Shown here: in pieces, positions 42,683 to 62,909 of the stretch
Position numbering within the stretch: the stretch's first letter is position 1
How the letters are laid out: each line of letters starts with the position of its first letter
Source of the DNA: Candidatus Daviesbacteria bacterium
GTDB lineage: Bacteria > Patescibacteriota > Microgenomatia > Daviesbacterales > UBA10151
Assembly: GCA_016176405.1 (NCBI GenBank)
Contig: JACOXG010000011.1
Location: 1 to 63,277 of the forward strand
Reading direction: 5' to 3'
Length of the DNA stretch: 63,277 nt
Notes under the pieces: model-generated
What the model saw: only the letters and a program-made list of their open reading frames with translations
Database searches by the model: none
What the model was told of the DNA's origin: nothing
Position numbers and translations under genes: made by a program

Positions 42683-44859
<2,177 letters not shown>

Positions 44860-45628: not shown

Positions 45629-47410
45629 ATGGATCTGGACATAATAGATCTAGACCCAAAAAATAATTTGGGTTTTAAGCTTATGGCAAATCAGGCTGCC
45701 CAAACTACTCAGACCAATAGAGACCAAATAGAAGATATTTTATTTAAGCAAGGACTGTTAACCTCTGATCAGCTGTCTGCAATTAAATTAGAAAGTATCA
45801 ATTCTGGCCAACCGATTGATAAAATCTTGGTTCAGCACAATTTAGTGCCCCTAGATAAGTTAACTCAGGCCAAGGCCCAGCTTCTTAATGTCCCCTTTAT
45901 CAAGCTGGAGGGTAAGGCCATCTCGGCAGATATTTTAAATCTGATTCCTGAACCTGCTGCCAGACGTTATCAGATCATTCCCTTTGACAGACGAGAAGAT
46001 GAGCTCATGGTAGCCATGGTAGATCCTTTGGATATTCAAATCATCCAATTTATTGAAAAAAGGTCAGGTTTTAGAGTTAAGCCCTTTTTGGCTTTAGGGG
46101 ATGATATTTTAAAAGCTATCAGGGATCAATATGCCCAAAATTTAACTAGTGAGGTGACCTCAGCCTTAAGGGAAGTAGAAGAGGTTAAGCCAGAAGAAGT
46201 TCAAGAACAAGGGCCAGAAATGATCAGGGAGGCACCTGTCTCCAATATCATCAACCAACTCTTGGAATATGCTGTTAAAACTCGGGCCTCTGATATTCAT
46301 ATTGAACCGCAAGATGATCGGACCAGAGTCAGATATAGAATTGATGGAATTTTACAGGAGAAGATCTTACTGCCAAAAGGGGTGCATGAGGCCTTGATTT
46401 CTAGAGTGAAAATTTTGGCAGTCTTAAAAATTGATGAAAAAAGACTGCCCCAGGATGGTAGATTCACCTTTAATTATGGATCAAATGAGGTGGATTTGAG
46501 AATTTCCACTGTCCCCACAGTTTTTGGAGAAAAAGTGGTGATGAGACTTTTACCTAAATCATCTGCCGCTCCCTCTCTTTTCGAATTAGGTCTAAGAGGT
46601 ACCTCTTTGAGAAATCTGGAGGCTCAGCTGCTTCGGACTCATGGTATCATCTTAATTTGTGGCCCCACCGGTTCTGGTAAAACTACCACGCTGTATTCGA
46701 TACTCACCAAAGTTTCCACCACCAAGGTGAACGTGGTTACTATTGAAGATCCGGTCGAGTATCAAATTCCTGGTGTTAATCAGGTTCAGGTTAATCCTCA
46801 AGTAGGTTTAACCTTTGCCTCAGCCTTAAGGAGTTTCCTTCGGCAAGATCCTAATATAATAATGGTAGGAGAGATTAGAGATACGGAAACCGCGGATTTG
46901 GCCATTCAGGCGGCTTTGACTGGTCACCAAGTTTTCTCCACTGTCCATACCAATTCTGCTGCCGGTGCTCCACCCAGGTTGTTGGACATGGGAGTTGAAC
47001 CATTTCTTCTTACCTCTTCCCTTTATGCCGCAGTCGGCCAAAGGGTGGTCAGAAAAATTTGCCCAAAATGTAGAGTGGAATTTGTAGCTATTCCAGAGGT
47101 GGTGGAAAATATCAAAACGGTTTTAGGCAAACTGTTGCCGCAATCTGCAGTCAATGGTAGTTTAAAACTTTTTAAAGGAAAGGGCTGTAACTTTTGTGCA
47201 ACCACTGGTTATTTGGGTAGAATTGGTATTTTTGAATCACTGATTGTGACAGATGCCATTGCCAAGTTGATTTTAGAGCATGCTTCTTCCTCAATCATTG
47301 AGAAAGAAGCCATCGCCTCCGGCATGATTACCATGAAACAGGATGGATATTTAAAGGTGCTGGAGGGCATAACAACTTTGGAGGAGGTACTTAGAGTTGC
47401 ACAAGATTAA
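45629..47410 (+). CDS. pilB: type IV pilus assembly ATPase PilB (GspE family)
   Basis: N-terminal GspE_N-type domain, Walker A GPTGSGKTTT, Asp/His boxes, C-terminal CPKC..CNFC zinc cluster. An alternative ATG lies at 45683. Confidence 0.93.
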   Translation: MDLDIIDLDPKNNLGFKLMANQAAQTTQTNRDQIEDILFKQGLLTSDQLSAIKLESINSGQPIDKILVQHNLVPLDKLTQAKAQLLNVPFIKLEGKAISADILNLIPEPAARRYQIIPFDRREDELMVAMVDPLDIQIIQFIEKRSGFRVKPFLALGDDILKAIRDQYAQNLTSEVTSALREVEEVKPEEVQEQGPEMIREAPVSNIINQLLEYAVKTRASDIHIEPQDDRTRVRYRIDGILQEKILLPKGVHEALISRVKILAVLKIDEKRLPQDGRFTFNYGSNEVDLRISTVPTVFGEKVVMRLLPKSSAAPSLFELGLRGTSLRNLEAQLLRTHGIILICGPTGSGKTTTLYSILTKVSTTKVNVVTIEDPVEYQIPGVNQVQVNPQVGLTFASALRSFLRQDPNIIMVGEIRDTETADLAIQAALTGHQVFSTVHTNSAAGAPPRLLDMGVEPFLLTSSLYAAVGQRVVRKICPKCRVEFVAIPEVVENIKTVLGKLLPQSAVNGSLKLFKGKGCNFCATTGYLGRIGIFESLIVTDAIAKLILEHASSSIIEKEAIASGMITMKQDGYLKVLEGITTLEEVLRVAQD

Positions 47411-47415
47411 GTGAG

Positions 47416-47482
47416 AAAATTCCAAATCACAAATTCCAAATAACAAACTATTTGTAATTTGGTGCTTGGAATTTGGAATTTT
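47416..47482. repeat. long imperfect hairpin spacer built from CAAATNN / NNATTTG heptamers
   Basis: Arms 47416-47447 and 47451-47482 pair at 26 of 32 positions by hand alignment. Confidence 0.75.
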
Positions 47483-47486
47483 ATTT

Positions 47487-48539
47487 ATGAACATTAACCA
47501 GCTCTTAGACTTAACTATCTTAAGAAAAGCCTCAGATTTACATCTGTCTGTTGGTTTTCCTCCCACACTCAGGATTAACGGAGAACTGATCCCCATCCCT
47601 GGTGAAGAGGTCATGACCGAGTCCCAGATTGAAAGTTTGGTCACGCCCTTGTTGTCTGAGATCCAAAAAAATATCTTTGCTCAGACTTTTGAATTAGACT
47701 TTTCCTTTGAATTTGAAAATAAGGGTAGGTTTAGAGTCAATATTTATAAACAAAGAGGTAATATAGCAGCTGCCTTAAGATTAATCCCTTTCCGTATTCC
47801 CCTTTTGGAAGAAACTGGCTTGCCTCAAGTAGTTTCCAAACTGACCGAGCTTAGACAGGGTTTTATTTTGGTGACAGGGCCGACCGGCCATGGTAAAACC
47901 ACCACCCAGGCAGCCTTTATCAACAAAATTAACCATGATCGAGCTGTTCATGTGATTACAGTAGAAGATCCGATTGAGTACGTTTATCCAAAGGGCAAAT
48001 CTTTGATTGATCAGCGGGAGATGTATCGAGACACCAAATCCTGGTCCAATGCCCTGAGGGCTATACTTAGGGAAGACCCAGATGTGGTGTTGATCGGAGA
48101 AATGAGGGATTTGGAAACAATTGCCTCGGCCATGACCATTGCTGAAACTGGACATTTGGTGTTTGGTACCTTGCATACCAACTCAGCTGCTCAATCAGTG
48201 GATAGAATTATCGATGTCTTTCCTGAGATTCAACAGCCGCAAATTAAGTTACAGCTAGCTGCTACCTTAGAAGCCATTATTTCTTTAAGACTAATTCCCA
48301 CCATCGAACCTGGTCGAACTTTGGCAGCAGAGATTCTGTTTGCCACTCCGGCTGTCCGCAACATCATCAGAGAAGGTAAATCATACCTGATAGATAATAT
48401 TATTGAAACTTCAGCTGAGTTGGGCATGCAAAGTATCGAGCGCTCCCTGGCAGAGCTGGTTAAAAAAGGCAAGATCTCTCAAGATGTGGCCTTAAGGTAT
48501 GCTCTACGCCCGGAACTACTCAATAAGCTTATTAAATAA
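47487..48539 (+). CDS. pilT: twitching-motility retraction ATPase PilT
   Basis: ASDLHLSVG, Walker A GPTGHGKTTT, GHLVFGTLHTNSA. Confidence 0.95.
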   Translation: MNINQLLDLTILRKASDLHLSVGFPPTLRINGELIPIPGEEVMTESQIESLVTPLLSEIQKNIFAQTFELDFSFEFENKGRFRVNIYKQRGNIAAALRLIPFRIPLLEETGLPQVVSKLTELRQGFILVTGPTGHGKTTTQAAFINKINHDRAVHVITVEDPIEYVYPKGKSLIDQREMYRDTKSWSNALRAILREDPDVVLIGEMRDLETIASAMTIAETGHLVFGTLHTNSAAQSVDRIIDVFPEIQQPQIKLQLAATLEAIISLRLIPTIEPGRTLAAEILFATPAVRNIIREGKSYLIDNIIETSAELGMQSIERSLAELVKKGKISQDVALRYALRPELLNKLIK

Positions 48540-48638: not shown

Positions 48639-49841
48639 ATGGCTGAATTCATCTATAGAGCTAAAGACCTGAATGGCAAAGAATATAGCGGCGACGTTCA
48701 GTCTGCCGATATTCGCACTGCAGTGGGGATTTTAAGAAAAAGAGGCTTGGTGGTGATTACGGTCAAGCCAAAATTTAAATCAGCCGCTCCCTTTTTGGAG
48801 GCTTTTTTAAACCGGGTCAGTTTTTCCGAATTGGTAGTCACCACCAGGCAGCTGGCCACCATGGTAGGTAGCGGTTTGGTGCTGTCTGAGGCTATTGATA
48901 TTTTAGAAGAACAACAGACCAATAAAACTTTTAAAAAGGCTCTGGGAGAAATATCATCAGATGTCAAAGGTGGTTTAACTTTGGCTCAGGCTTTAAGTCG
49001 GCATCCCAAAATTTTCCCTCGACTTTATGTCAATCTGGTCAGAAGCGGAGAAACTTCCGGAAAATTGGATGAGGTACTTCTTCGAATGGCCACTGGATTG
49101 GAGAAGGAAAGAGAATTTCAAGCCAGGGTCAGAGGAGCTATGATCTATCCGGCGGTGGTGTTAACTATGATGGGGGTAGTAATTATCATCATGATGGTCT
49201 TTGTCATCCCCAAATTGGTCACCCTATATGATCAGTCAACTTTGGAACTTCCTTGGCCAACCAAGATTTTAATTGCTTCCTCAAATCTTTTTATCAATTT
49301 CTGGTGGGCTTTTATTATCTTAGTAGTGGCGGCTATTTTTGGCCTAAAAAGGTGGAACAAAACTCCTGAAGGCCATCTATTTTTAAGCAACCTAATACTT
49401 AAGCTGCCGATTGTTGGTAAAATTGTCTCAAATGTTACTTTGACTAACTTTAACCGCACCTTTGGGCTACTCACCTCAGCTGGTATTCCCCTTTTGGACT
49501 CAATCTCAATTGTGGAAGATATGACAGAGAATGCTGCTTTTAAAAAGGTGTTAAAAGAAGCGCATGGGGGAGTAGAAAAGGGGTTGCCACTTTCCTCGCT
49601 TTTGACTAGTACCATTTTCCCCCGGATTGTGGGGCAGATGGTTAAGGTAGGTGAAGAAACAGGCAAGATTGATGAAATATTTTTGAAACTGGCAGACTAT
49701 TTTGAGTCAGAGTCTGATCATTTAATTAAAAATCTGACAGTGGCTATTGAGCCAATTATCTTGATTATTTTGGGAATTGGAGTAGGATTTTTGGTTATAT
49801 CCATTATTTTGCCGATCTACCAATTAACCACCAGCTTTTAA
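48639..49841 (+). CDS. pilC: type IV pilus platform protein PilC (GspF family)
   Basis: Two T2SSF repeats, three TM segments, 400 aa. Confidence 0.93.
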   Translation: MAEFIYRAKDLNGKEYSGDVQSADIRTAVGILRKRGLVVITVKPKFKSAAPFLEAFLNRVSFSELVVTTRQLATMVGSGLVLSEAIDILEEQQTNKTFKKALGEISSDVKGGLTLAQALSRHPKIFPRLYVNLVRSGETSGKLDEVLLRMATGLEKEREFQARVRGAMIYPAVVLTMMGVVIIIMMVFVIPKLVTLYDQSTLELPWPTKILIASSNLFINFWWAFIILVVAAIFGLKRWNKTPEGHLFLSNLILKLPIVGKIVSNVTLTNFNRTFGLLTSAGIPLLDSISIVEDMTENAAFKKVLKEAHGGVEKGLPLSSLLTSTIFPRIVGQMVKVGEETGKIDEIFLKLADYFESESDHLIKNLTVAIEPIILIILGIGVGFLVISIILPIYQLTTSF

Positions 49842-49911: not shown

Positions 49912-50481
49912 TTGAGAAAATCTGCCCAGGTTCTAACTAGAGGGTTTACCCTAGTGGAACTTTTGGTTGTTATTGCTATTATTGCCATTTTGGCGGCAGT
50001 GGTGGTACTGATTGTTAATCCCTTAGAGGTAACTAGAAGGGCTCGTGATGCCACCAGATTTGCTGATGTGACTAATGTTCAACAAGCCATCAATGTGACT
50101 GTTCAAGAAGCAACTGGATCAGGAGCTGAAGTGCTTTGTGCTGGAGGATCTGCTCCCTGTGTAGGTAGAAGTACAGATAGTGGTTCCCAATCATCAGCTG
50201 GTACTGGATGGGTTAAAGTTGATTTGACTGTGCAAAATGCAGTGGCTGTACCAAACTTGCCAAATGATCCGCAAAATACATCCGGTGCAACCGGCATGCA
50301 CTATACTTATTGTTCTGACGGTAATGCTTGGGAAATCAATACCAGGCTAGAGTCAACCCGATATACAGTGGATGAAGATCGTGATGGTGGAGATGGTGGG
50401 GATGATCCTGATATATACGAGACTGGTTCTGACCCAGGTTTGAATTTGATCTCACCATCAGGTGGTTCATGTACTTATTAA
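49912..50481 (+). CDS. type IV pilin (class III signal peptide)
   Basis: RGFTLVELLVVIAIIAILAA prepilin cleavage/methylation motif; TTG start 6 nt after GGGGGGTGAG. Confidence 0.85.
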   Translation: MRKSAQVLTRGFTLVELLVVIAIIAILAAVVVLIVNPLEVTRRARDATRFADVTNVQQAINVTVQEATGSGAEVLCAGGSAPCVGRSTDSGSQSSAGTGWVKVDLTVQNAVAVPNLPNDPQNTSGATGMHYTYCSDGNAWEINTRLESTRYTVDEDRDGGDGGDDPDIYETGSDPGLNLISPSGGSCTY

Positions 50482-51380
50482 GTTTAGTTGCTTCTGGCTT
50501 TATTTTAGGGACGATTTTAGGTAGTTTAACCAAAGCCCTAGCTGACAGAAGTTTAACTAATGGTAAGTTTTTGGGAAGGTCGTACTGCCCGCATTGCAAA
50601 AAAGTCTTGCGATGGTACGACCTTCTTCCTATTGTCTCCTACCTACTTCTAAAAGGAAAATGTCATTATTGCCACAAAAATATTGGCAAAGAATATTTAA
50701 TGGTGGAGTTAGTGATGGGGCTTTTGATAGCCTATTTATTCTATCAGAACTTCTCATACTTTAACTTTCCCCTTTCTCCTTTACCCTTTACCCTTTTTTT
50801 CTTAGATCTTATTTATAAAATCTTCTTTATCACGGTTTTAGCCATTCTATTTATAACAGATCTTAAGAAGATGTTAATTCCGGATCGGATAGTTATTCCA
50901 GCAATCATCATCAGCTCTATCTATCTAATTATGACCACCATTCTAAAAATTGGCTTCCTATATTATTCCCTCTCCCAAACTCAAATAGGCAGATACTTAC
51001 TTCCTCCTCACAGTGAATTTTTTCAAAGGCATGCCTTAATTGCGGCTGAGGGAGCAATAGGAGCATTTTTAGTGGCGCTTACAATTGGAGGACTCTTTTT
51101 ATTTTTGGCAAAAATTACTGGAGGTCGAGGTATGGGAGGTGGAGATGTCAAGTTAGGATTTTTAATGGGATTAGGCTTAGGTTTCCCCAATGCTTTGGTG
51201 GCCTTAATGGGAGGATTTTTATCAGGGGCAGTGGTAGCCATCATCTTAATTATTTTAGGTAAAAAACATTTTGGCCAGTCTATCCCCTTTGGACCATTTT
51301 TGGTGTTAGGTAGTTTAGTGGCTCTTTTTTGGGGTAATCAAATAATGGGGTGGTATCTGAGATTATCATTCTCAGGCTAA
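50469..51380 (+). CDS. pilD: prepilin peptidase/N-methyltransferase PilD (A24 family)
   Basis: CPHCKKVL..CHYCHK zinc motif and GGGDVKL catalytic Asp motif. Confidence 0.92.
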   Translation: MYLLSLVASGFILGTILGSLTKALADRSLTNGKFLGRSYCPHCKKVLRWYDLLPIVSYLLLKGKCHYCHKNIGKEYLMVELVMGLLIAYLFYQNFSYFNFPLSPLPFTLFFLDLIYKIFFITVLAILFITDLKKMLIPDRIVIPAIIISSIYLIMTTILKIGFLYYSLSQTQIGRYLLPPHSEFFQRHALIAAEGAIGAFLVALTIGGLFLFLAKITGGRGMGGGDVKLGFLMGLGLGFPNALVALMGGFLSGAVVAIILIILGKKHFGQSIPFGPFLVLGSLVALFWGNQIMGWYLRLSFSG

Positions 51381-51436: not shown

Positions 51437-51877
51437 ATGAAAAAGTATCTGCCCAAAACTTCTGGTTTCACCTTAGTTGAACTTTTGGTAGTTGTGGCCA
51501 TTATTGCCATTTTAGCAATAATTGGTATTGCTATTTTCTCCGGTCTTCAACCAAGGGCTAGAGATGCCACCAGAAAATCAGATCTAGAAGCTATTTCTAA
51601 GGCTATGGAAACTCAGTATGTAGAAAGTACTGCTCAATATGCTGCCTTGGCTGCGACCTTCTTTGCAGGTGGAACAATTCCCACAGATCCACTAAACGGA
51701 ACAACTACCTGTCAATCAAATACTTGTAAATACTGTGTGAGAACAAGCAATGGCAATTGTACAACTACAGACACTACTGTAGCAGCTGGGCAACCTCCTG
51801 CAGGTACCAGCTATAGAGTTTGTACTAATTTAGAACAAGGTACACCCACTTTTCTTTGTTACGCCAGTCAACGCTAA
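51437..51877 (+). CDS. type IV pilin
   Basis: SGFTLVELLVVVAIIAILA motif; Cys-containing C-terminal region. Confidence 0.88.
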   Translation: MKKYLPKTSGFTLVELLVVVAIIAILAIIGIAIFSGLQPRARDATRKSDLEAISKAMETQYVESTAQYAALAATFFAGGTIPTDPLNGTTTCQSNTCKYCVRTSNGNCTTTDTTVAAGQPPAGTSYRVCTNLEQGTPTFLCYASQR

Positions 51878-51885
51878 CTTACTAC

Positions 51886-51915
51886 TTGCATTTTAAAAAA
51901 ATTTATTGGAATAAT
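51886..51915 (+). promoter_or_regulatory. candidate promoter TTGCAT-18-AATAAT
   Basis: -10-like box ends 8 nt before ATG 51924; no Shine-Dalgarno. Confidence 0.35.
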
Positions 51916-51923
51916 AAATTAAC

Positions 51924-52841
51924 ATGCCCAACAAAAAAGGTTTTACCCTGGTTGAACTGCTGGTAGTTATAGCTATCCTGGCCATCCTGGCTATTATTGG
52001 CATAGTGATTTTCACCGGGCTGACCAAAAATGCTAATGAAAGTAGAAAAAAATCCGATGTGGAAACCATAGCCAAAGTTTTGGAAGCACAGTATAGTCCA
52101 ATAGCTGGTTACCCTAATCCTCTGGCAGGCACTTTCTTTGCTTCAGGAATAGTACCAACACCTCCTGAGGGAGGTACCTACAATGTTGTATATAGTACTG
52201 GTAATGTTGGTTTTAGAGTTTGTGCAGATTCTGCTGATACTGATCCCCTTACAACCTGTAGTGCGTCTTCTAGTACTTGTTTCTGTAAAGATTCCAGCCA
52301 ATCACAATACGTAGCCGCTGGTGGTCCCCCACCAGGAGGTGGTGGAAATCCCAAACGGGTCTTTGTGACCAGTACCACATCTAATGGTAATTTAGGTGGA
52401 TTAGCTGGAGCTGATACTACCTGTAACACACGCGCCAGTTCAGAAGGATTAGGAGGTACTTGGGTGGCTTGGCTGTCCACTACTACAGTTGCTGCCAGTT
52501 CAAGGGTGAATCAAACAGGTGCTCCTTATGAGTTAGTCAATGGTACAGATATTGCCGATGATTGGACAGATTTAACCACTCTTCATGATGGAACTAATTA
52601 CCTAAAAGCTGCAATTAATATTAATGAAAGTGGAACAACAGTAACAGCTAATGTCTGGACCAATACAACTGTAACTGGAGGTATACCCGCCACATCAGCT
52701 GATTGTAGTGGTTGGACCTCGCCAGATTCTGCTGTTACTGGAAAAGGTGGCACTACCACAAGTACCACTGCTACCTGGACTGCTGCTGGTAGTACTCCAA
52801 CCTGTAATAATTCTTATCGTTTATATTGTTTTGAGCAATAA
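51924..52841 (+). CDS. type IV pilin fused to a C-terminal endostatin/DUF1554-like domain
   Basis: KGFTLVELLVVIAILAILA, then a Gly/Pro linker, then KRVFVTSTTSNGNLGGLAGADTTCNTRA..GGTWVAWLS..YRLYCFEQ. Confidence 0.85.
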   Translation: MPNKKGFTLVELLVVIAILAILAIIGIVIFTGLTKNANESRKKSDVETIAKVLEAQYSPIAGYPNPLAGTFFASGIVPTPPEGGTYNVVYSTGNVGFRVCADSADTDPLTTCSASSSTCFCKDSSQSQYVAAGGPPPGGGGNPKRVFVTSTTSNGNLGGLAGADTTCNTRASSEGLGGTWVAWLSTTTVAASSRVNQTGAPYELVNGTDIADDWTDLTTLHDGTNYLKAAININESGTTVTANVWTNTTVTGGIPATSADCSGWTSPDSAVTGKGGTTTSTTATWTAAGSTPTCNNSYRLYCFEQ

Positions 52842-52931
52842 TTTAAATTTACCTAGTACCACTACGCCCTTTATCAAATTTATCAAACAGGTATGCCCCT
52901 CGCTACTAGTCGCACTACTAATTACGTGTTA

Positions 52932-53727
52932 CCAACCCCCGGTGTCAACACCCGGGGTTTAATAGCTTGAAACCTAAGGATATTTTGTGGTAATGTAGCC
53001 TTATGCCATACCGTAAGACTCCCCTATCCCAAGGAGAGATTTATCACATCTTCAATCGCAGTGTTGCCAGACAACCCATCTTTTTAGGAAATAGAGATTA
53101 TCAAAGAGCTTTGGAGACGATCAGATTTTATCTCTTTTCCGGAGCTCATTTAAGTTTCTCCCATTATGACAGGTTACCTCTGCAACAACGCTCTGATTTT
53201 ATGAAAAAACTGGAAGAGTCAAATGAAAGGCAGATAGAAATCTTTGCTTACTGTCTCATGCCAAATCACCTCCATTTCTTAATGAAGTGCCTAAGGGATA
53301 AAGGTATTAGCAATTTCATGAATTGGTTGCAAAATAGCTACGCCAAATACTTCAATATTAAAACGGAGAGAAGTGGGGCTTTATTCCAATCAATGTTTAA
53401 GGCAGTCAGAATTGAATCAGATGAACAATTCATCCATGTGGGGCGTTATATCCATCTTAATCCCTTAACTGCCTATATTATAAAAAACTCAGCCCAACTA
53501 GAGAACTATCCATGGTCTTCCTTTGCAGAGTATCTGGATAATCAGGATCCCAAAATTATCAGCAGAGAGCTCATGTTAGGTCACTTCTCTTCCGTAGAAG
53601 CCTTTAAAAGATTCACTTTTGATCAAATAGATTATCAAAGAAAATTAGCCGAAATTAAACACTTACTAAATGAGTAAACTTTGGATTTTCCTTAGGTTTC
53701 TATTCAACCAACCCCCGGTGTTGGTTT
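52932..53727 (+). mobile_element. RAYT (REP-associated Y1 transposase) unit with flanking inverted REPs
   Basis: Left REP 52932-52980 and inverted right REP 53684-53727 bracket the IS200-like gene. Confidence 0.75.
53003..53677 (+). CDS. IS200-like/REP-associated tyrosine transposase (RAYT)
   Basis: HIFNRSVARQPIF, HUH motif in CLMPNHLHFLM, catalytic Tyr region GRYIHLNPL. Confidence 0.88.
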   Translation: MPYRKTPLSQGEIYHIFNRSVARQPIFLGNRDYQRALETIRFYLFSGAHLSFSHYDRLPLQQRSDFMKKLEESNERQIEIFAYCLMPNHLHFLMKCLRDKGISNFMNWLQNSYAKYFNIKTERSGALFQSMFKAVRIESDEQFIHVGRYIHLNPLTAYIIKNSAQLENYPWSSFAEYLDNQDPKIISRELMLGHFSSVEAFKRFTFDQIDYQRKLAEIKHLLNE

Positions 53728-53732
53728 TCTCG

Positions 53733-53761
53733 TTGACGAGGCATTAATGGTAGTGAATAAT
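53733..53761 (+). promoter_or_regulatory. candidate promoter TTGACG-17-AATAAT
   Basis: -10-like box ends 7 nt before ATG 53769. Confidence 0.4.
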
Positions 53762-53768
53762 AAAGATA

Positions 53769-54284
53769 ATGCCTAGAAGTAAGCCAAAAGTTTCTGGTTT
53801 TACCCTTATAGAGCTTCTGGTAGTAATCACCATTATAGCTGTTTTGGCTGCTATTGGACTTTTAAGCTATTCCAAATTTATTGAAACTTCTAGAAATGCC
53901 AAAAGACAATCTGACCTAAAATTAATTCAATCAGCCCTAGAACAATATCATGCTGACCAAAAATTCTATCCAAATGAGGGATTAAATTTAGGGAGTGGTA
54001 CAACTCTAACAAACTGTACTGGTAACGCTACAGGTTGTTCTGTTAGTAAAACCTATTTAAATTCCATACCCAAAGATCCTAAAGCCAGTCCTGCTTATTG
54101 CTATAGATCAATGATTAGTTCTTCTCGGACAGGTGATAATTGTAGTAGTGGTTGGTATGATGATTCAGGTCATGAAAAATGTCAGTATTACCGCATATGT
54201 GCAACTTTAGAAAATCCCAGCTCTTCTACATCCTGTGATTGTGGGGGTGGTAAAACTGGTAACTTTGAAGTAAATCCCCCATAA
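53769..54284 (+). CDS. type IV pilin
   Basis: SGFTLIELLVVITIIAVLAA motif; Cys-rich C-terminus. Confidence 0.88.
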   Translation: MPRSKPKVSGFTLIELLVVITIIAVLAAIGLLSYSKFIETSRNAKRQSDLKLIQSALEQYHADQKFYPNEGLNLGSGTTLTNCTGNATGCSVSKTYLNSIPKDPKASPAYCYRSMISSSRTGDNCSSGWYDDSGHEKCQYYRICATLENPSSSTSCDCGGGKTGNFEVNPP

Positions 54285-54322
54285 AGCTTTAGATTTTCCC
54301 CAATTTATGTTACTTTTAAATC

Positions 54323-54865
54323 ATGCCCACTTCATCTACCAACTCCTCAGGTTTCACATTGCTTGAGCTTTTAATTGTTTTGGTAATTTTAGCAATTTTA
54401 GCAGTAACTGCCGGAATCAATTTTAGGACCCTTTCGGAGGATCAAGTTTTAAAAAAAGCCACCTCTGATATTCAATCCTTTTTAAGGCTGGCCCAATCTA
54501 ATTCCACTGCAGGAGTTAAATGTCCTGGTACATCTACAGCGGGTAGCTGGTCAGTGGTATTCAATGGCAGTGATAAAAAAAAATTAGAGATGAATTGCAG
54601 TTATGTTTCTGGAGATAGTGGTATTTTGATTGCTAATGCAAAACCACCCCTGGTATTAGAAAATGCAGAGGTTTCATCAATTACTGGTAGCAGTTGTACT
54701 GCTGGCCCACCCTTTACAGTTTACTATGCCACTCTTTATGGCACTGTGACATTTAATTCTGATACTAATTGTTCAAAGGCGACTGTTACAGTCAAAAGAG
54801 TCAATTCTACCAGCACCAAAGACTTTTATATTACCAAAGGAGGATCCATAGATGCAGCGCCGTGA
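54323..54865 (+). CDS. minor pilin / pseudopilin
   Basis: SGFTLLELLIVLVILAILA motif. Confidence 0.85.
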   Translation: MPTSSTNSSGFTLLELLIVLVILAILAVTAGINFRTLSEDQVLKKATSDIQSFLRLAQSNSTAGVKCPGTSTAGSWSVVFNGSDKKKLEMNCSYVSGDSGILIANAKPPLVLENAEVSSITGSSCTAGPPFTVYYATLYGTVTFNSDTNCSKATVTVKRVNSTSTKDFYITKGGSIDAAP

Positions 54866-55400
54866 AGGTGGGCAGACATTGTTGGAATTGACCATAGTAG
54901 TGGGAATTACCGTGATTGTGGTGACAGCTTTAGTCTTTGCCACTATTTTCAGCCTCAGAAACGCTCAATTGGCTAAAAATCAAACTCAAGCTACTAAACT
55001 GGCCCAGGAAGGACTGGAAAGAGTCAGAAGCGGCAGGAGTAGAAACCTACCCATTACCGGTATCGGAAGTGTGACCAGTTGGAATGGTGATACGAGTGGG
55101 GCTGGAGCTATCTGGAGCTACACTATTAATGGAAATTGTGGGAATACCACTCTCCCTACCCCCACCTATTGCTACTTTACTCTCTCTTCTAAAACCTCTG
55201 ATAATTCACTAAACTACCTGGCTGTTTCTGATAAGTTTCCAGTCAGCAGCAGTGTTGAGAAAATTGATCAATTCGAGAGAGCCATTATTATTAGTGATGG
55301 CTCCTCTGCTTCCGAAAAAAAAGTCACATCTGTTGTTAAATGGACTGATGCGGCAGGTCCGCATGAGGCCAAAGTGACTACCATATTAGGGAAACTATGA
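54852..55400 (+). CDS. minor pilin-like protein (atypical +1 Gln)
   Basis: GGQTLLELTIVVGITVIVV with Glu at +5. Confidence 0.7.
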   Translation: MQRREGGQTLLELTIVVGITVIVVTALVFATIFSLRNAQLAKNQTQATKLAQEGLERVRSGRSRNLPITGIGSVTSWNGDTSGAGAIWSYTINGNCGNTTLPTPTYCYFTLSSKTSDNSLNYLAVSDKFPVSSSVEKIDQFERAIIISDGSSASEKKVTSVVKWTDAAGPHEAKVTTILGKL

Positions 55401-56065
55401 TAAGAAAAGTTCAAAGTTCGAAGTTCAAAGTTCGAAGTTCAAAGGGTTTTACCTTGGTTGAAATGCTGGTAGTGATAGCAGTATTGGGGGTGATTGGGTC
55501 ATTAATTTTAGCCATTTTCACCTCAACTTTGCGGGGCAGTAATAAATCTCAAATAATTTCTATTATTAAGCAAAACGGCCAATCTGTTTTAGAAACGATG
55601 GATAAAACTATCCGAAATTCTGAGGGTGTGGTCTGTGTATCTAGCGCAAATGATGTGATTGCTGTTGTCCAGGATAATATCTATACCAGATATAAATTTG
55701 TCACATCCTCCTCCTCAGCTAAAAGTGATTGCGTCACAGAAAATGGTTGCATACTGCAAGACAATCCGGTGAGGCCATCTTCCGGTTCAGAAGCTGATAT
55801 AGACCTATTCCTCGATAGTCTTTGTGTAAATCCTCTAGATTCACCCAAAATATTAACAGATACCAACAAGAAAACAGGTGTTTCTGTTAGAAAAACCAAG
55901 GATGCTTCAGGTAGTGAGCTGCCCTACATTAGCCGCAGTGAAAGATCAGGTTTTAAGGATGTGGTGACTATTCGCTTTAGCTTGGAGGAAGGTAAAGAGG
56001 CTCCTCCCGAGGTGGCTGGGCAGATTGATCCCATACCTTTTCAAACAAGCATAGAGTTAAGATGA
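55397..56065 (+). CDS. minor pilin / pseudopilin with long repeat-encoded leader
   Basis: KGFTLVEMLVVIAVLGV motif. The leader MIRKVQSSKFKVRSSK is encoded by the (AGTTCRA)x5 array. Confidence 0.8.
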   Translation: MIRKVQSSKFKVRSSKGFTLVEMLVVIAVLGVIGSLILAIFTSTLRGSNKSQIISIIKQNGQSVLETMDKTIRNSEGVVCVSSANDVIAVVQDNIYTRYKFVTSSSSAKSDCVTENGCILQDNPVRPSSGSEADIDLFLDSLCVNPLDSPKILTDTNKKTGVSVRKTKDASGSELPYISRSERSGFKDVVTIRFSLEEGKEAPPEVAGQIDPIPFQTSIELR

Positions 56066-56991
56066 GACTGTTGACAAATGTCCGTCAAAAATTGACAATT
56101 AAAGTAATGAAAGGCCAAACTCTGTTGGTAATTATTTTGGTTGTAACTGTGGCCTTGGCAATTGGACTCTCAGTGGTACAAAGAAGCTTAACAGACATAT
56201 CTACCTCCTCCAAAGTAGAAGAATCTGCCCGGGCTTTTTCCGCAGCTGAGGCAGGGATAGAGAGAGTCTTGCAGTCAGCTCCGGCAGGACCAACCAGTTT
56301 CACCTTACCTCTTACTGAAACCCAAGCTTCAGCCCAAGTTACTGATACCGGTTTACTTCCCATCACCTCGGCAGGTAGTACTCAGGTGGCTTTGGAAGAG
56401 GATCCGCCCTTATCCAAAGAGGAAGTCTCCCATATCTGGCTGGCTGATCCTGCTTCAAGTAGCAATACTCCCTCTGAATACTACAATCAGGATACTCTGG
56501 ATATCTATTGGGGTGAAAAAAATACCAGCCAAAAACCGGCCTTAGAACTTAAGATAGTCTGGCATGATGGCACAAATTATCAAGTACTACCCTTTTATTG
56601 GGATTCAGCCCCAGCCACCAGGACTACTCCTAATGGTTTTGATGACAAATCTGGCAATTGTTCGGATGATCCCGCTAGAAATACTGTCAATACCACCTCT
56701 GGTAATAACAGACCATTTTATTGCAAGACTACCATCACTGGATTATCCAGCAATAGAAGATTGATCCTCTTAAGAGCCAGAATTTTGTATAGTGGGGATC
56801 CTCAGCCTTTTGCGGTGGGACCTATTGGTAGTTGTGGTCAAGGTTGTTCTCTCCCCCGTCAGGTCCAAATTCTCACTTCCACCGGTACTGCTGGAGAGAC
56901 ACAAAGAAAGGTTCGAGTCTCTAAAAAGATTAAGGTTGTTCCCTTCTATTTTGACTATGCCATCTTCTCGGCAGGAGATATAAGTAAGTGA
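56062..56991 (+). CDS. PilX-like pilus-associated protein
   Basis: MKGQTLLVIILVVTVALAIG hydrophobic N-terminus without Glu5; alternative start ATG 56107. Confidence 0.6.
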   Translation: MRLLTNVRQKLTIKVMKGQTLLVIILVVTVALAIGLSVVQRSLTDISTSSKVEESARAFSAAEAGIERVLQSAPAGPTSFTLPLTETQASAQVTDTGLLPITSAGSTQVALEEDPPLSKEEVSHIWLADPASSSNTPSEYYNQDTLDIYWGEKNTSQKPALELKIVWHDGTNYQVLPFYWDSAPATRTTPNGFDDKSGNCSDDPARNTVNTTSGNNRPFYCKTTITGLSSNRRLILLRARILYSGDPQPFAVGPIGSCGQGCSLPRQVQILTSTGTAGETQRKVRVSKKIKVVPFYFDYAIFSAGDISK

Positions 56992-56999
56992 CGCTTTGC

Positions 57000-57037
57000 G
57001 TCATCCTGAGGAGCCATAAAGGCGACGAAGGATCTGG
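57000..57037 (+). repeat. single copy of the GTCATCCTGAG..CGAAGGATC family
   Basis: GTCATCCTGAGGAGCCATAAAGGCGACGAAGGATCTGG between two pilin-like genes. Confidence 0.75.
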
Positions 57038-57042
57038 AAATT

Positions 57043-57441
57043 ATGTCAAATGAAAAAGGTCTTTCCCTCATTGAAGTACTGCTGATCATTGCCATCATTG
57101 GGGTAACAGTCATACTTTTAGCCAATATTCCCAATGCCATGAATTTAATTACCAGAAGCAGACATACCTCTTTAGCCAGAGAAATTGCCACCAAACAAAT
57201 TGAAGATAAAAGAGCGGTAAATTATATAAATTTGGCTAATGGTTCCTCAAATATTAGCGATTCCCGAATGAGTCAACTTCCCCAAGGATCAGGTACTATT
57301 TTAATCGAAGATTGCGATCTGTCAGTTTGCACCAACTCAGAAGCCATTAAAACAATTACCGTCACTGTCAATTGGTTAAATAACAGTAAACCACAGACTC
57401 TGACCTTAACTACTTTTATTGGCCAAGGAGGACTACAGTGA
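57043..57441 (+). CDS. minor pilin / pseudopilin
   Basis: KGLSLIEVLLIIAIIGV motif. Confidence 0.75.
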   Translation: MSNEKGLSLIEVLLIIAIIGVTVILLANIPNAMNLITRSRHTSLAREIATKQIEDKRAVNYINLANGSSNISDSRMSQLPQGSGTILIEDCDLSVCTNSEAIKTITVTVNWLNNSKPQTLTLTTFIGQGGLQ

Positions 57442-58010
57442 AAGAGAGAGGGGTGACTATTTCCGAGGCTTTGATTGTTTTGGCCATCACCGCTTTAGTG
57501 GGTTCAATACTCACAGCCATTATTGTCAACAGTACTGGCTTATTTTATAAAGAATCTTCCAAAGTCCAACAGGGTTTGGGATTAAATGATGCTCTAGCCA
57601 AAATTAGGGTGAATGTTAAAGAGGCCTCCTCGATTGCCTCTTCATTTGTTGATCAAGGCACGACTTACACATCTTCTGCTACTCAGCTAGTTTTACAAGT
57701 ACCCTCGATTGACTCAGGGGGTAATATCATTGCCAATACCTTTGATCATGTGGTAATTTATCTGGATGGAACTCTACTTCGATTTAAACTATTTCCTAAT
57801 CAACTAAGTAGCAGGATATTGGTTGATGAAATCCTGACGACTGTGGCAGAAGCTATTGTTTTTAAATATTATGACAGCGCTAATCCTCCCCAAGAAGTCT
57901 CGCCTATTGCAGCCGAAAAAGTGCAGATTAGTCTGACAGTCAAACAAAAGGCGGGAGCCAACTTTGAAACAGCCACAGCCACATCGGAGGCAAATTTAAG
58001 AAATGATTAA
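57438..58010 (+). CDS. minor pilin-like protein
   Basis: RGVTISEALIVLAITALVG with Glu at +5. Confidence 0.7.
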   Translation: MKERGVTISEALIVLAITALVGSILTAIIVNSTGLFYKESSKVQQGLGLNDALAKIRVNVKEASSIASSFVDQGTTYTSSATQLVLQVPSIDSGGNIIANTFDHVVIYLDGTLLRFKLFPNQLSSRILVDEILTTVAEAIVFKYYDSANPPQEVSPIAAEKVQISLTVKQKAGANFETATATSEANLRND

Positions 58011-59787
58011 TCAGAAGGGTCAAGTATTAGTAATTGTCATTGCTGCCTTAGGGATAGTTCTTTTTACAGTGCTTTTTATTATTGCCGGAGCCCAGCTTTA
58101 TTTCCAAAACTCTGCCTATAATGTTAACGCAGAAAAGGCCACAGCTTTGGCTGAGGCAGGAATTGACAAAGCCATCAATGCTTTAAATGCCACCGGCGGA
58201 AATTATACTGGTGAGACAGAAACCAGCTTGGGTGATGGTTCATTCTCTGTGACAATCACCCCGGTTGATACTACCACCTCCATCATAGAATCGACCGGTT
58301 ATGTGCCAAATAAATCAAATCCCAAAGCTAAAAGAACCATCAAAATTACCACCTCCAAAGGAGTAGGGATAGCTTTTAATTACGGTATCCAGGTTGGTGA
58401 GGGCGGTTTGGAGTTAGGTAATAGTAATTTAGTGAAAGGATCAGTCTATTCCAATGGTAGTATCACAGCTGGCAATACCAATGAGATCACAGGTGATGTT
58501 TGGGTGGCAGGCGGGCCACAGCCTAATCCTGATCAGGCTGCTCCCGATTGTGTGGATAATAATTGTCAAGATTTTATTTTTGGTAGATCTGTTAATGGCG
58601 AGAGTCATCTTGATGTGGCTCAAAGCTTTAAACCCCAAGAGAGCGGAGTTTTAAACAAGGTCTCGATCAGAATAAAAAAATTTGGTTCTCCCCCCAATAT
58701 CACAGTCAGGATTTTACAAGATGATGATGGTGAACCAGACAAAAATGCTGTTTTAACTACCGGAACACTCTATGCTTCTTTAGTCACCGCCAGCTACGGT
58801 TGGATTGATATCACTTTCAACTCCTCCCCTGCTTTAACCCAAGACGAATCATATTGGTTAATGTTTGATACCTCATCAGATAATAATAATTATTGGTCTT
58901 GGCAAAATGATCTGGCTCAAAGTTATACTCGAGGAGTGCCCAAGTGGTCCCCCAATTGGTCAATCGGCAATGCTCAGTGGAACTCTTTTAATGGAGATTT
59001 AGCCTTCAAGGACTATTTGGGAGGAGCTCCCACATCTGTGAGAGCCAACAGCAGTAAAATGGAGGTAGGAGGCGAAGTCCATGCCAACACCATCCAAAAT
59101 CTGGAAATTGAGGGAAATGCTTATTATCAAACCATCATTACCTCAACAGTTAATGGTACTTCTAATCCTGGTTCAGCTGATCCTCCGCCCAAAGTTTTTC
59201 CCATTTCTGAGGCCAATATAGCAGAATGGAAGGATCAGGCAGATGGAGAAGATAATGATAATACCACCGGGCCTATCTCAAATTGTGTCTCAACTTTGGG
59301 GCCAATCAAGGTGATAGGCGATGTTAATTTTGACAGTGGTTGTAGGGTTACTATCAAAAGTCCCATCTGGATCACAGGCAATTTGACCATGAATAGTAAC
59401 AATGTTTTAACTTTGGATTCCTCATGGGGAGCGGGCTCAGGGGTGATGGTGGTGGATGGAACAATCGAGATGAACAGCAATAACCACTTAAATGGTACTG
59501 GAGTGGGTACCAGCTTGCTGATGGGGTTGTCCAATTATAATTCTCCTCAAAATGGGGGATTAGCAGCCATCAAGGTTAATAGTAATGGTAATACGGGAGT
59601 TTATTATGCCTCCTCTGGTATTATTGAGCCTGGTACCGCCAACTCCTTTAAGGAATTAACTGCCTGGGGAATCAGATTGGTCAGTAACTCTGTCATTGAT
59701 TATGAAACAGGCTTATCCTCTACCCTTTTTACTTCAGGACCGACGGGTGCATATACTTTACTGAAAGGAACATATCAGGTTAAATAG
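58003..59787 (+). CDS. large pilus-associated protein (PilX/PilY-like position), beta-helix-like repeats
   Basis: KGQVLVIVIAALGIVLF N-terminus; GSVYSNGSITAGNTNEITGDVWVAG repeat-like stretch. Confidence 0.6.
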   Translation: MINQKGQVLVIVIAALGIVLFTVLFIIAGAQLYFQNSAYNVNAEKATALAEAGIDKAINALNATGGNYTGETETSLGDGSFSVTITPVDTTTSIIESTGYVPNKSNPKAKRTIKITTSKGVGIAFNYGIQVGEGGLELGNSNLVKGSVYSNGSITAGNTNEITGDVWVAGGPQPNPDQAAPDCVDNNCQDFIFGRSVNGESHLDVAQSFKPQESGVLNKVSIRIKKFGSPPNITVRILQDDDGEPDKNAVLTTGTLYASLVTASYGWIDITFNSSPALTQDESYWLMFDTSSDNNNYWSWQNDLAQSYTRGVPKWSPNWSIGNAQWNSFNGDLAFKDYLGGAPTSVRANSSKMEVGGEVHANTIQNLEIEGNAYYQTIITSTVNGTSNPGSADPPPKVFPISEANIAEWKDQADGEDNDNTTGPISNCVSTLGPIKVIGDVNFDSGCRVTIKSPIWITGNLTMNSNNVLTLDSSWGAGSGVMVVDGTIEMNSNNHLNGTGVGTSLLMGLSNYNSPQNGGLAAIKVNSNGNTGVYYASSGIIEPGTANSFKELTAWGIRLVSNSVIDYETGLSSTLFTSGPTGAYTLLKGTYQVK

Positions 59788-59878: not shown

Positions 59879-60916
59879 ATGGCAAAAGTTACTGTTGGTT
59901 TAGATATTGGTCTTTCCTCGATTAAAGCAGTTTCCTTAGCTGCCGATCATGGTCAATTTAAACTCCTCTCCTTAGCCACCATTTCCTCTCCCCAACCAGG
60001 CATGTTATCTGATAATGAGGCTGATTTAGAGGCAGTGGCTCAATCCATCAAAAAGTTACTCTCCTCAGCCAGAATTGATACCAGGGAGGTAGTGATGGCT
60101 TTGCCAGAATCCAAAGTCTTCACCAGGGTAATAGATGATTTGCCGTATCTGACCGATCAAGAGCTTTCCTCCGCCATCCGTTATGCTGCTGAGGAGTTTA
60201 TTCCCATGCCCCTTTTAGATGTTAATTTAAATTGGCAAGTCCTATCACGCTCCGACAACAAGAATAAAAAAGAAAGAACTGTGGTTTTTGTGATAGCTTC
60301 TCCCAAAAATATTGTATCCAAATATATTAAGGTTTTGGGATTGGCAGGACTGACCCCCAAAGCTTTAGAAACTGAGATTATTGCCGTAACCCGTTCTTTG
60401 GTGGGTAATAATCCCTTTTCACCAAATACTTTAATAGTGCAGCTTGGTTCCACTACCACAGATTTTGCCACCGTGGCTGGTGGCTTAATCTGGCTAACCA
60501 GATCCATCTCCACTGGCGGCATGTCTTTAACCAGATCTTTGGCTCAACAATTTAACTTTGAGGTGGTTCAGGCAGAAGAATATAAAAAGGTTTATGGACT
60601 TTTGGAAGATCAACTGGAAGGTAAAGTGTTGGAGGCTTTAAAACCGATTGTGGATATTATTGTGACCGAATCAAAAAGAGTCATCCAAGGTTATAACACC
60701 AAATATCCCCAGAATCCTGTTAAAAGGGTGGTTTTATCCGGCGGTGGAGCTAAGATGCCAGGACTAGTGATTTATTTTGCCAACAATTTAGGCTTAGAAG
60801 TGCAAGAGGCTGATCCCTGGTTTTCTATTTCTAAAGACCGGGCCATTGCCTCAAAACTGACCAAAGATGCTCCACTCTACTCTGTGGCAGTCGGGTTGGC
60901 TTTAAGAGAGGGGTAG
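59879..60916 (+). CDS. pilM: type IV pilus assembly protein PilM (actin-like ATPase fold)
   Basis: VGLDIGLSSIKAV start, 345 aa, GGGAKMPGL motif. Confidence 0.9.
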   Translation: MAKVTVGLDIGLSSIKAVSLAADHGQFKLLSLATISSPQPGMLSDNEADLEAVAQSIKKLLSSARIDTREVVMALPESKVFTRVIDDLPYLTDQELSSAIRYAAEEFIPMPLLDVNLNWQVLSRSDNKNKKERTVVFVIASPKNIVSKYIKVLGLAGLTPKALETEIIAVTRSLVGNNPFSPNTLIVQLGSTTTDFATVAGGLIWLTRSISTGGMSLTRSLAQQFNFEVVQAEEYKKVYGLLEDQLEGKVLEALKPIVDIIVTESKRVIQGYNTKYPQNPVKRVVLSGGGAKMPGLVIYFANNLGLEVQEADPWFSISKDRAIASKLTKDAPLYSVAVGLALREG

Positions 60917-60924
60917 GTTTCAAA

Positions 60925-61458
60925 ATGATCAACATTAATTTATTACCTCAGGAATTTACATTTGAAAGAAGTAAGAAGGTGAGATTTTTTAAAATCCAAG
61001 CTTTGGGAGTAGCAATCTTACTCTTTTTTATTTTTCTCTCCTCCTTGACCGTGGCTTTGAGAATTTTGCAAAGTCGAAATATTGATTTAGTCCGTACCAA
61101 GCTAAGTGCGGTGGAGCAAAGAATCACCAGTGAAATAGATAAACAAGGTTCAGTTCTGCTGGTCAAAGATAGATTAAACACAATTAATCAATTTTTGGGG
61201 GTTTCTTCTGAGCAAGCCTCCATATATAAATTAATCACCTCTCTGATTCCTGCAGGCGTTTTGGTCTCTAACATGTCCATAGATAAAAACAGTGATGTGA
61301 CTTTACAAATAACTGTGCCTGATGCTAATTCTTTAGATAATCTGATCAGCTCTCTTTTAAATACAGAGAAGAATGAAGGTAAAATTACTAAAATCGATGT
61401 GGAAAATTTAAGTCGAGCTCAGGGTGGCATTTATAGAGTAGGTTTGAAGGTTAAATAA
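60925..61458 (+). CDS. pilN: PilN-like bitopic protein
   Basis: MININLLPQE followed by a single TM helix. Confidence 0.78.
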   Translation: MININLLPQEFTFERSKKVRFFKIQALGVAILLFFIFLSSLTVALRILQSRNIDLVRTKLSAVEQRITSEIDKQGSVLLVKDRLNTINQFLGVSSEQASIYKLITSLIPAGVLVSNMSIDKNSDVTLQITVPDANSLDNLISSLLNTEKNEGKITKIDVENLSRAQGGIYRVGLKVK

Positions 61459-61483: not shown

Positions 61484-62173
61484 ATGAACAAAGAAGCTCT
61501 AGGTAAATTTTACTATGCATATAGGCTCTACATATTTCCCCTGGTGATAGGGTTGTCTTGCATAATTTTAATAATTTTGGTGATTTATCCACAAATCTCT
61601 AAATTGATTAGCAATAGGAAGGTGGAAGGGGAGCTTAAAGACAAAACAATACTTTTGGAGGCTAAAGCCGAACAGTTGGAAAGTTTTGATGCGCAAGCTT
61701 TGTCAAAAAGAGTTGATTATGTGCTAAGTTCTTATCCAGCTGAGAAAGATTTTGCCACCACGGTGGGTTTGATTCCCCAAATAGCAGCCAATTCCGGGTT
61801 TAGTGTGACATCGCTTAATTTCGCCTCATCATCATCTGAAGGAGAAAAAAATTACAGGGTCTCCCTTGATGTGATTGGTCCAGGATCGTTAATCGACACT
61901 TTTGTGTCAGATATTGAAAGCTCGGCCAGATTGATGAGAGTCAGTAATCTGGAAATATCAGCAGGTAGAAGTGGTGATGAGATTAATGCCACCATTGGGA
62001 TTGATGTTTTGTATAGTTCACTGCCTGCGGAATTTGGCACAGTTGATACTCCTTTACCTGAGTTCTCTGCCAAAGATGAAGATGTTATTGCCAAATTGGC
62101 TCAAACTGCTCCAGCAGTTGCTACTGTCTTTATTTCATCCGGTCCAAAAGGAAAAACTAATCCATTTGAGTAA
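61484..62173 (+). CDS. pilO: PilO-like bitopic protein
   Basis: N-terminal TM, coiled-coil segment, position after pilN. Confidence 0.62.
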   Translation: MNKEALGKFYYAYRLYIFPLVIGLSCIILIILVIYPQISKLISNRKVEGELKDKTILLEAKAEQLESFDAQALSKRVDYVLSSYPAEKDFATTVGLIPQIAANSGFSVTSLNFASSSSEGEKNYRVSLDVIGPGSLIDTFVSDIESSARLMRVSNLEISAGRSGDEINATIGIDVLYSSLPAEFGTVDTPLPEFSAKDEDVIAKLAQTAPAVATVFISSGPKGKTNPFE

Positions 62174-62873: not shown

Positions 62874-62909
62874 AAACACCGGGTGTTGGTTAGCTTGAAA
62901 CCTCGGGAT
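62874..62909 (+). repeat. REP copy overlapping the 3' end of the KH-domain gene
   Basis: AAACACCGGGTGTTGGTTAGCTTGAAACCTCGGGAT. The reverse strand reads ..NPEVSS-stop. Confidence 0.8.

Follow-up and report, generated by a model that had tools for sequence, protein, structure and literature searches.

A modular type IV pilin with a predicted endostatin-fold (DUF1554) module in a pilus locus of Candidatus Daviesbacteria

A 63,277-nucleotide stretch of the genome of a Candidatus Daviesbacteria, a tiny bacterium of groundwater type that is uncultured (contig JACOXG010000011.1, positions 1 to 63,277; hereafter "the window") contains a type IV pilus locus, and within it a gene whose product joins a pilin to a large C-terminal domain (hereafter the "fusion pilin"). 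The protein is an uncharacterised modular type IV pilin whose added module is predicted to have the endostatin (DUF1554) fold. A preliminary description, made from the sequence alone, had pointed to this region as a pilin fused to an endostatin/DUF1554-like domain. The residues that it quoted agree exactly with the translation of the open reading frame (ORF) at 51924..52841. Position 52350, where it placed the start, falls on the P143 codon, where the linker ends, and 52350..52841 runs from P143 to the stop codon. The gene is laid out as follows.

51924..52841, + strand: bimodular type IV pilin gene, 305 amino acids plus stop codon (ORF list; Pfam N_methyl, Endostatin and DUF1554)
51924..51941, + strand: prepilin leader peptide MPNKKG, residues 1-6, with predicted cleavage before F7 (PF07963, TIGR02532)
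51942..52292, + strand: pilin module, residues 7-123 (AlphaFold2 helix and strands; paralogy to the neighbouring 146-residue pilin)
52293..52352, + strand: flexible linker, residues 124-143, SSQSQYVAAGGPPPGGGGNP (low model confidence; variable spacers in homologs)
52353..52838, + strand: Endostatin-fold/DUF1554 module, residues 144-305, with four conserved Cys and C-terminal LYCFEQ (Pfam, PDB, Foldseek and conservation map)

The C-terminal domain of about 160 residues starts at KRVFVTSTTSNGNLGGLAGADTTC and ends with RLYCFEQ. Pfam and NCBIfam profile scores were judged against curated gathering scores or cut-offs. By this standard the Pfam Endostatin profile (PF06482) matched the protein above its gathering score (32.8 bits versus 29.4, E = 6.8e-8), with residues 151-304 aligned to positions 8-166 of the 170 in the model, and the domain alone scored 35.4 bits (E = 1e-8). 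The DUF1554 profile (PF07588), the other family that had been named for the domain, fell slightly below its own threshold (25.5 bits versus 27.5, E = 1.3e-5). When the 163-residue domain was used as a phmmer query against the PDB, it retrieved mouse endostatin (1koe, E = 1.2e-5; also 1dy0) and human endostatin (1bnl, E = 2.9e-4). Judged on these scores, the resemblance to endostatin is far beyond chance. The phmmer alignments also bear out the proposed correspondence of all four Cys positions, with C167, C261, C294 and C302 placed opposite endostatin C33, C135, C165 and C173. In endostatin these form the nested disulfides C33-C173 and C135-C165; all four residues are matched in the module, and the same pairing is predicted.

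A structural model was calculated with AlphaFold2 from an alignment of 68 sequences. The mean predicted local distance difference test score (pLDDT) of the fusion pilin is 89, and over the endostatin-like domain it is 95-98. Values below 50 occur only at linker residues 137-139 and at the first three residues of the protein, with the block 131-140 at 51. The Gly/Pro linker of about 20 residues reads AAGGPPPGGGGNP, with GGPPPGGGGNP at its end; in homologs the corresponding spacers are rich in Pro/Thr and differ in length, some of them exceeding that of the fusion pilin. A Foldseek search of the PDB with the model gave five significant matches, every one a collagen XVIII/XV endostatin (E = 6.4e-11 to 8.3e-9, probability 1.00, template modeling (TM) scores of 0.74-0.78 normalised to the target). 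The best was 1koe (E = 6.4e-11, probability 1.00, TM 0.78, root-mean-square deviation 3.0 over 176 columns). Thus, the model assigns the C-terminal 160 residues to the endostatin (DUF1554) fold, as had been proposed. Significant matches came from profile searches (Endostatin) and from structure comparison alike, the two checks on which the preliminary description had made its reading depend.

Conservation across the 68 homologs is uneven. In the first half of the module V146, F147, T149, S150, G155, L157, G158, G159, L160, G162, D164, C167, A171, G178, A182 and W183 are near-invariant, as are L300, Y301, C302, F303, E304 and Q305 of the last strand. Residues ~191-300 vary, save for the anchors Y202, A211, L217, I231, E235, T246, G252, C261, W264, G276, W285, T286 and C294. 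C167 and C294 do not vary at all, and at least 90% of the sequences keep C261 and C302. The family consensus KRVFVTSTTYNGNLGGLxGADxKC ... LYCFEQ, compared with KRVFVTSTTSNGNLGGLAGADTTC ... LYCFEQ in the fusion pilin, shows the DUF1554 signature.

We also checked other identities for the module. The preliminary description had called it C-type-lectin-like, which we did not find: the Lectin_C profile had no match at E <= 10 in the fusion pilin, and the C-type lectins of snake venoms and poxviruses appeared in Foldseek only at E > 2; by profile and structure search the module is not a canonical C-type lectin domain. A relationship to phage proteins was rejected, as a viral structure library gave nothing at E < 0.7. 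Diversity-generating retroelements usually employ the C-type-lectin fold as the scaffold of their variable proteins. The module was ruled out as a target of such an element on the ground that the window has no template-repeat-like copy: elsewhere in it, DNA similarity to 52301-52960 never exceeds 18 nucleotides, and tblastn found no second copy of the endostatin-like domain.

The N-terminal part of the protein is a pilin, in line with the preliminary description. Its N-terminus, MPNKKG followed by FTLVELLVVIAILAILAIIGIVIF, is a class III (prepilin) signal with G-1, F+1 and E+5, and the corresponding G6, F7 and E11 are invariant or nearly so across the aligned fusion homologs. Both N-terminal profiles exceeded their cut-offs (Pfam N_methyl PF07963, 36.3 bits versus 21.2, E = 3.5e-9; TIGR02532, 32.4 bits versus 16.3). 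The model of this part has a helix at residues 9-55 (pLDDT 87-95) followed by strands at 87-90, 97-102 and 119-123, the lollipop shape of a pilin, with four Cys of its own (C100, C112, C119 and C121); Foldseek matches to solved pilins were weak (E = 0.4-4; 4bhr, E = 0.43). Residues 1-116 are 42% identical to the adjacent 146-residue pilin, and the alpha-1N segment is almost identical in the two (GFTLVELLVV-AI-AILAIIGI). The pilin module is thus a paralog of its neighbour, which is the probable major pilin. The signal and the lollipop model, together with a prepilin peptidase (its gene 0.5 kb upstream of the fusion gene) and assembly machinery encoded in the same cluster, are those expected of a type IV pilin. 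In addition, the combination of N_methyl with Endostatin/DUF1554, a domain that is not pilus-specific, agrees with the definition of a modular pilin (Raynaud et al., 2021).

The genes around the fusion pilin are co-oriented and make up a complete retractile type IV pilus set, with PilB, PilT, PilC, PilD, about ten pilins and PilM/O. They are listed here with their orthologs in L089, the closest relative with a syntenic locus (GyrB 85% identical).

45629..47410, + strand: PilB (Pfam T2SSE/T2SSF scan)
47466..48539, + strand: PilT (TIGR01420, 436 bits versus a cut-off of 319)
48639..49841, + strand: PilC (Pfam T2SSE/T2SSF scan)
49912..50481, + strand: 189-residue pilin upstream of PilD (N_methyl, E = 2.7e-7; 60% identical ortholog in L089)
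50469..51380, + strand: prepilin peptidase PilD (Pfam A24_N_bact, E = 4e-23, and Peptidase_A24)
51437..51877, + strand: 146-residue pilin (N_methyl; 42% identity to the fusion pilin; 52% identical ortholog directly after PilD in L089)
53769..58010, + strand: seven minor-pilin-like genes starting at 53769, 54323, 54852, 55397, 56062 (PilX-like), 57043 and 57438 (N_methyl or PilX_N)
58003..59787, + strand: 594-residue protein with a pilin-like hydrophobic N-terminus, MINQKGQVLVIVIAALG (no Pfam match)
59879..60916, + strand: PilM (Pfam PilM_2, E = 1.7e-52)
60925..61458, + strand: probable PilN (by position only)
61484..62173, + strand: PilO (Pfam PilO, E = 6e-7)

No secretin gene was detected among the cluster ORFs scanned. 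Residues 206-330 of the 594-residue protein match a "choice-of-anchor R" domain (NCBIfam, 38.3 bits versus a cut-off of 30), and the protein may be a second large pilus-associated surface protein. Consensus scans for a promoter or terminator of the fusion gene's own gave nothing above shuffled controls, the RNA fold of the intergenic stretch downstream of the gene was not unusual (z = -0.83), and an Rfam scan of the window returned one tRNA and nothing else.

Between the fusion pilin and the minor-pilin genes (53003-53677) lies a 224-residue gene resembling IS200-like/REP-associated tyrosine transposases (Pfam Y1_Tnp, E = 5e-11; NCBIfam REP_Tyr_transpos, 57 bits, under the cut-off of 80). A palindromic element, ACCAACCCCCGGTGTTGG, is present on both of its flanks (52931-52960 and 53706-53726) and also at 45127-45140 and 62876-62889 (- strand). 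The 14-mer of this element occurs 4 times in the window versus 0.12 expected by chance.

The GyrB protein encoded in the window (42955..44853, - strand) is 82-85% identical to Candidatus Daviesbacteria proteins, which places the organism among the Microgenomates of the Patescibacteria, or the Candidate Phyla Radiation. Several Daviesbacteria GyrB homologs of 844-1,099 amino acids (including P0322, P0340, P0350, P0353, P0365 and P0370) have an intein (PF14890), which the GyrB of the window lacks.

Comparison with L089 showed that this locus has orthologs not only of the 189-residue pilin, PilD and the 146-residue pilin but also of a 171-residue pilin (50%) and of later genes. In L089 (2725-3694, corresponding to 51878-53768 of the window) the orthologs of the 146- and 171-residue pilins are adjacent with nothing between them, so that the fusion pilin and the transposase-like gene together form one indel in an otherwise collinear pilus locus. 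The pattern points to an accessory insertion in the lineage of the window or to a loss in L089. Because it is missing from the syntenic locus, we consider the fusion gene accessory and lineage-variable, not a core part of the pilus.

The pairing of a short pilin with a DUF1554 fusion pilin directly after it recurs on two further contigs. In L084 the order is PilB-PilT-PilC-x-PilD-pilin-pilin/LamG-x-pilin150-fusion325, and in L087 it is pilin192-pilin146-fusion328. The short pilin and the pilin module of the fusion are 30% and 44% identical in these two loci, and as in the window the two pilin modules are paralogous within each locus. A 224-residue Y1_Tnp gene is located upstream of pilB in L084.

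Full-length homologs of the fusion pilin share 34-58% identity with it. Of the 120 best, no fewer than 26 combine PF07963 with PF07588 or PF06482, most of these being proteins of the same radiation, and 35 have a prepilin motif. Among the aligned fusion members, N_methyl was detected in 14 of 14 and DUF1554 in 12 of 14 (best E = 3.5e-12); the named ones, which come from Candidatus Levybacteria and Portnoybacteria, carry the annotation "DUF1554 domain-containing protein". Because the architecture is identical on many independent contigs, a false fusion produced by an assembly or frameshift artefact was ruled out. The fusion is common in this radiation, and "unusual", the preliminary term for it, was an overstatement. 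One further group of fusions (P0039, P0035 and P0031, on L081, L082, L085 and L086) is found at the ends of operons of unannotated proteins, which adjoin PIN-toxin and mevalonate/isoprenoid genes (prenyltransferase, polyprenyl synthase, HMG-CoA reductase and synthase).

The domain itself is far more widespread. Searching 1.84 billion proteins with the domain alone recovered 12,570 cluster representatives at E <= 1e-3, of which 7,583 also passed E <= 1e-10; many of those recovered are giant proteins. Among the best 150, 143 were newly returned proteins, and 4 of these 143 have a prepilin motif. The closest domain relatives (P0121-P0263) include giant proteins of 1,500-3,200 amino acids with up to 11 tandem endostatin-like/DUF1554 copies (for example P0130 and P0143), and four proteins of 876-1,460 amino acids (P0144, P0148, P0189 and P0196) have a prepilin motif and 2-3 copies of the domain. 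In five other proteins (P0030, P0034, P0079, P0095 and P0114) a pilin module 44-56% identical to that of the fusion pilin carries LamG (PF13385) or fn3 instead of DUF1554, and a 672-residue pilin/LamG gene (L084:6712-8730) is located in the same cluster as the DUF1554 pilin of L084. Comparison of these sequences suggests module swapping on a shared pilin scaffold.

IPR011448, in the architecture considered next, is presumably DUF1554. The survey of modular pilins lists the architecture IPR012902-IPR011448 for 2 proteins (Dataset S1 of Raynaud et al., 2021; PMC8179133), and the combination of pilin and DUF1554 has thus apparently been published. The DUF1554 literature retrieved by full-text search included none about pilins. 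The grafting principle and the domain family are already on record, and apparently so is this architecture.

Three groups of characterised proteins resemble the fusion pilin. Modular pilins are widespread, and the von Willebrand factor A (vWA) module of Streptococcus sanguinis PilB is an adhesin (PMC8179133). Like PilB and the lectin-bearing PilC of that species, the fusion pilin has a class III signal and a small pilin module followed by an unrelated C-terminal module (PMC8179133, PMC9934059). The parallel extends to a monoderm-type organism without a secretin (here, among the ORFs scanned), a gene within the pilus locus and a proposed adhesive role. It differs in that its module has an endostatin/DUF1554 fold rather than a vWA or concanavalin-like one, some 20 disordered Gly/Pro residues form the linker where PilB has a short loop, and its pilin module is closely paralogous to the probable major pilin; the fusion pilin is known here from sequence and model. 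In the same radiation, Saccharibacteria have pilins with lectin-like C-terminal domains that are needed for host binding (PMC11623550). PilX1 and PilX2 of Saccharibacteria TM7x are likewise pilus subunits with an extra C-terminal domain, and efficient attachment to the host bacterium depends on PilX2, with glycan recognition proposed, but their folds, a beta-jelly roll and a beta-propeller, differ from that of the fusion pilin (PMC11623550). Finally, the DUF1554 (Len) proteins of Leptospira bind laminin, fibronectin and factor H in vitro (PMC2063517). LenA-LenF of Leptospira interrogans belong to the same endostatin-like DUF1554 family as the module and are surface-exposed (PMC2063517, PMC2387172), as the module is expected to be. 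The conserved domain start ..FVTS..GNLGG..GAD..C and a C-x-EQ ending are common to both (CFEQ in the fusion pilin family, CVEQ in Len; PMC2063517). In contrast, the Len proteins are lipoproteins, whereas the fusion pilin has a prepilin leader instead of a lipobox, and the Len ligands are mammalian and irrelevant to a Daviesbacteria cell.

From the analogies with S. sanguinis PilB, the Saccharibacteria pilins and Leptospira Len, the endostatin-like module is probably an adhesion module. We therefore consider it likely that the fusion pilin is a modular pilin adhesin, encoded by an accessory gene, whose filament-borne module binds a partner or host microbe or another substratum. PilD would remove the leader, and the PilB/PilC/PilMNO machine would polymerise the pilin module into a filament. 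The endostatin-like module would be held outside the cell on its linker, since the pilin module would sit in the filament, and could then bind a ligand on the surface of the partner or host microbe or on another substratum, after which PilT-driven retraction would pull the cell onto its target. Within the module, the conserved N-terminal half and the terminal strand may serve as the scaffold, and the variable C-terminal half (residues ~191-300) would be the likely specificity-determining surface. The host-attachment role suggested in the preliminary description is thus supported, by analogy, as far as adhesion is concerned; since the organism belongs to Candidatus Daviesbacteria, any "host" is most likely another microbe rather than an animal.

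Several observations weigh against this assignment, the first of which concern ligand chemistry. We take R24, R27, R53, R62, R63 and R139 to be the heparin-binding arginines of endostatin, and H1, H3, H11 and D76 its zinc ligands, following the residue roles in the endostatin literature. In the alignment with PDB sequences, R24 corresponds to G158, R27 to A161, R53 to T187 and R139 to T265, R62 falls within a deletion, and R63, the sole heparin arginine retained, corresponds to R194; five of the six are thus not conserved. The zinc ligands are absent: G207 stands in place of D76 and roughly R145 in place of H11, while the positions of H1 and H3 fall within the linker, so the N-terminal zinc histidines have no counterpart. 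The module is also acidic (pI, the isoelectric point, of 4.5; 7 K+R versus 12 D+E), with one His in the whole domain. Alignment and charge rule out heparin or zinc binding of the endostatin kind and identified no ligand or binding site. Being acidic and without the arginine patch of endostatin, the module is expected to have a ligand that is not heparin-like, and with the endostatin sites lost and a pI of 4.5, the "matrix- or glycan-binding" of the preliminary description is therefore still hypothetical. The comparison with animal endostatins (1koe, 1bnl and 1dy2) accordingly holds for the fold, for ~22% identity, for the four aligned Cys and for the Pfam model. Animal endostatin is basic and part of the NC1 domain of multiplexin collagens, whereas the module is part of a bacterial pilin and has no collagen, trimerisation or hinge context, and the specific functions of endostatin cannot be carried over to it.

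The remaining objections concern relatives and gene context. The LenA/LenB model (NCBIfam NF047482) gave 22.9 bits versus a cut-off of 300, which rules out membership of that family and leaves a weak similarity to the only experimentally studied bacterial relatives. L089 has its pilus locus without the fusion gene, and the gene is therefore dispensable for pilus assembly. In addition, the second fusion group (P0039, P0035 and P0031) is encoded away from core pilus genes.

Of the alternatives, the one that survives best accepts binding and differs in where the fusion pilin sits. It could be a second major-like subunit, co-polymerised along the shaft with the 146-residue pilin to give a module-coated filament with multivalent binding, rather than a rare tip subunit. 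The alpha-1N segment is nearly the same as in the probable major pilin, to which the pilin module as a whole is closely paralogous; in the model the endostatin-like module hangs unpacked from the pilin on a disordered linker, and the Pro/Thr spacers of homologs are longer still; and no gene for a secretin, which would limit filament diameter, turned up among the cluster ORFs scanned. The survey of modular pilins allows a location in the filament body given a flexible enough linker, but the characterised examples (S. sanguinis PilB and PilC, CofB and TcpB) are low-abundance tip subunits (PMC8179133). With a scaffold that resembles the major pilin, a linker that is flexible and no secretin apparent, we regard incorporation into the shaft as conceivable, although it is the less probable arrangement. 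A broader proposal, which we hold just as tentatively, is that the fusion pilin is a duplicated major pilin that co-polymerises along the shaft as an endostatin-fold sheath and that the position after the major pilin gene is a site of module swapping (DUF1554 here, LamG/fn3 elsewhere) that retargets pili to different host surfaces.

Alternatively, the module may not be a host adhesin at all and may instead act in pilus bundling, self-aggregation or biofilm formation, binding to the cell's own wall, or shielding of the filament from phage. No known binding site is conserved, and DUF1554 is found in thousands of unrelated extracellular proteins (with dockerin, LamG, fn3 and other domains, and in giant multi-repeat proteins), a spread that would fit a generic extracellular interaction or structural module. 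However, where members of this fold have been tested, namely in the Len proteins and endostatin, they are modules that bind ligands, and a hypervariable domain half combined with a gene that some close relatives have and others lack is typical of partner-specific recognition, so we consider a role of this other kind improbable.

Animal endostatin arises by proteolytic cleavage within the hinge region, and the linker of the fusion pilin is exposed and unstructured in the model, but release of the module as a soluble factor, with the pilin part a mere device for secretion and anchoring, seems most improbable given that there is no evident protease site or dedicated protease, that Gly/Pro and Pro/Thr linkers are typically protease-resistant spacers, and that type IV pilins offer no known precedent.

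Life attached to other microbes is the presumed habit of bacteria in this radiation, with type IV pili as their best-supported attachment organelles. Host-recognition molecules are known for a few cultivated Saccharibacteria, and the fusion pilin is a concrete, well-modelled candidate for the receptor-binding subunit of Daviesbacteria, with a defined variable surface that makes it a good experimental handle on host recognition. The finding extends the published concept that pilins gain functions by module grafting; it does not change that concept and is no conceptual surprise. For the family, it shows that a fold familiar mainly from animal collagens, that of endostatin, is very abundant in bacteria as an extracellular module, and that display on a pilin is one recurrent form of it.

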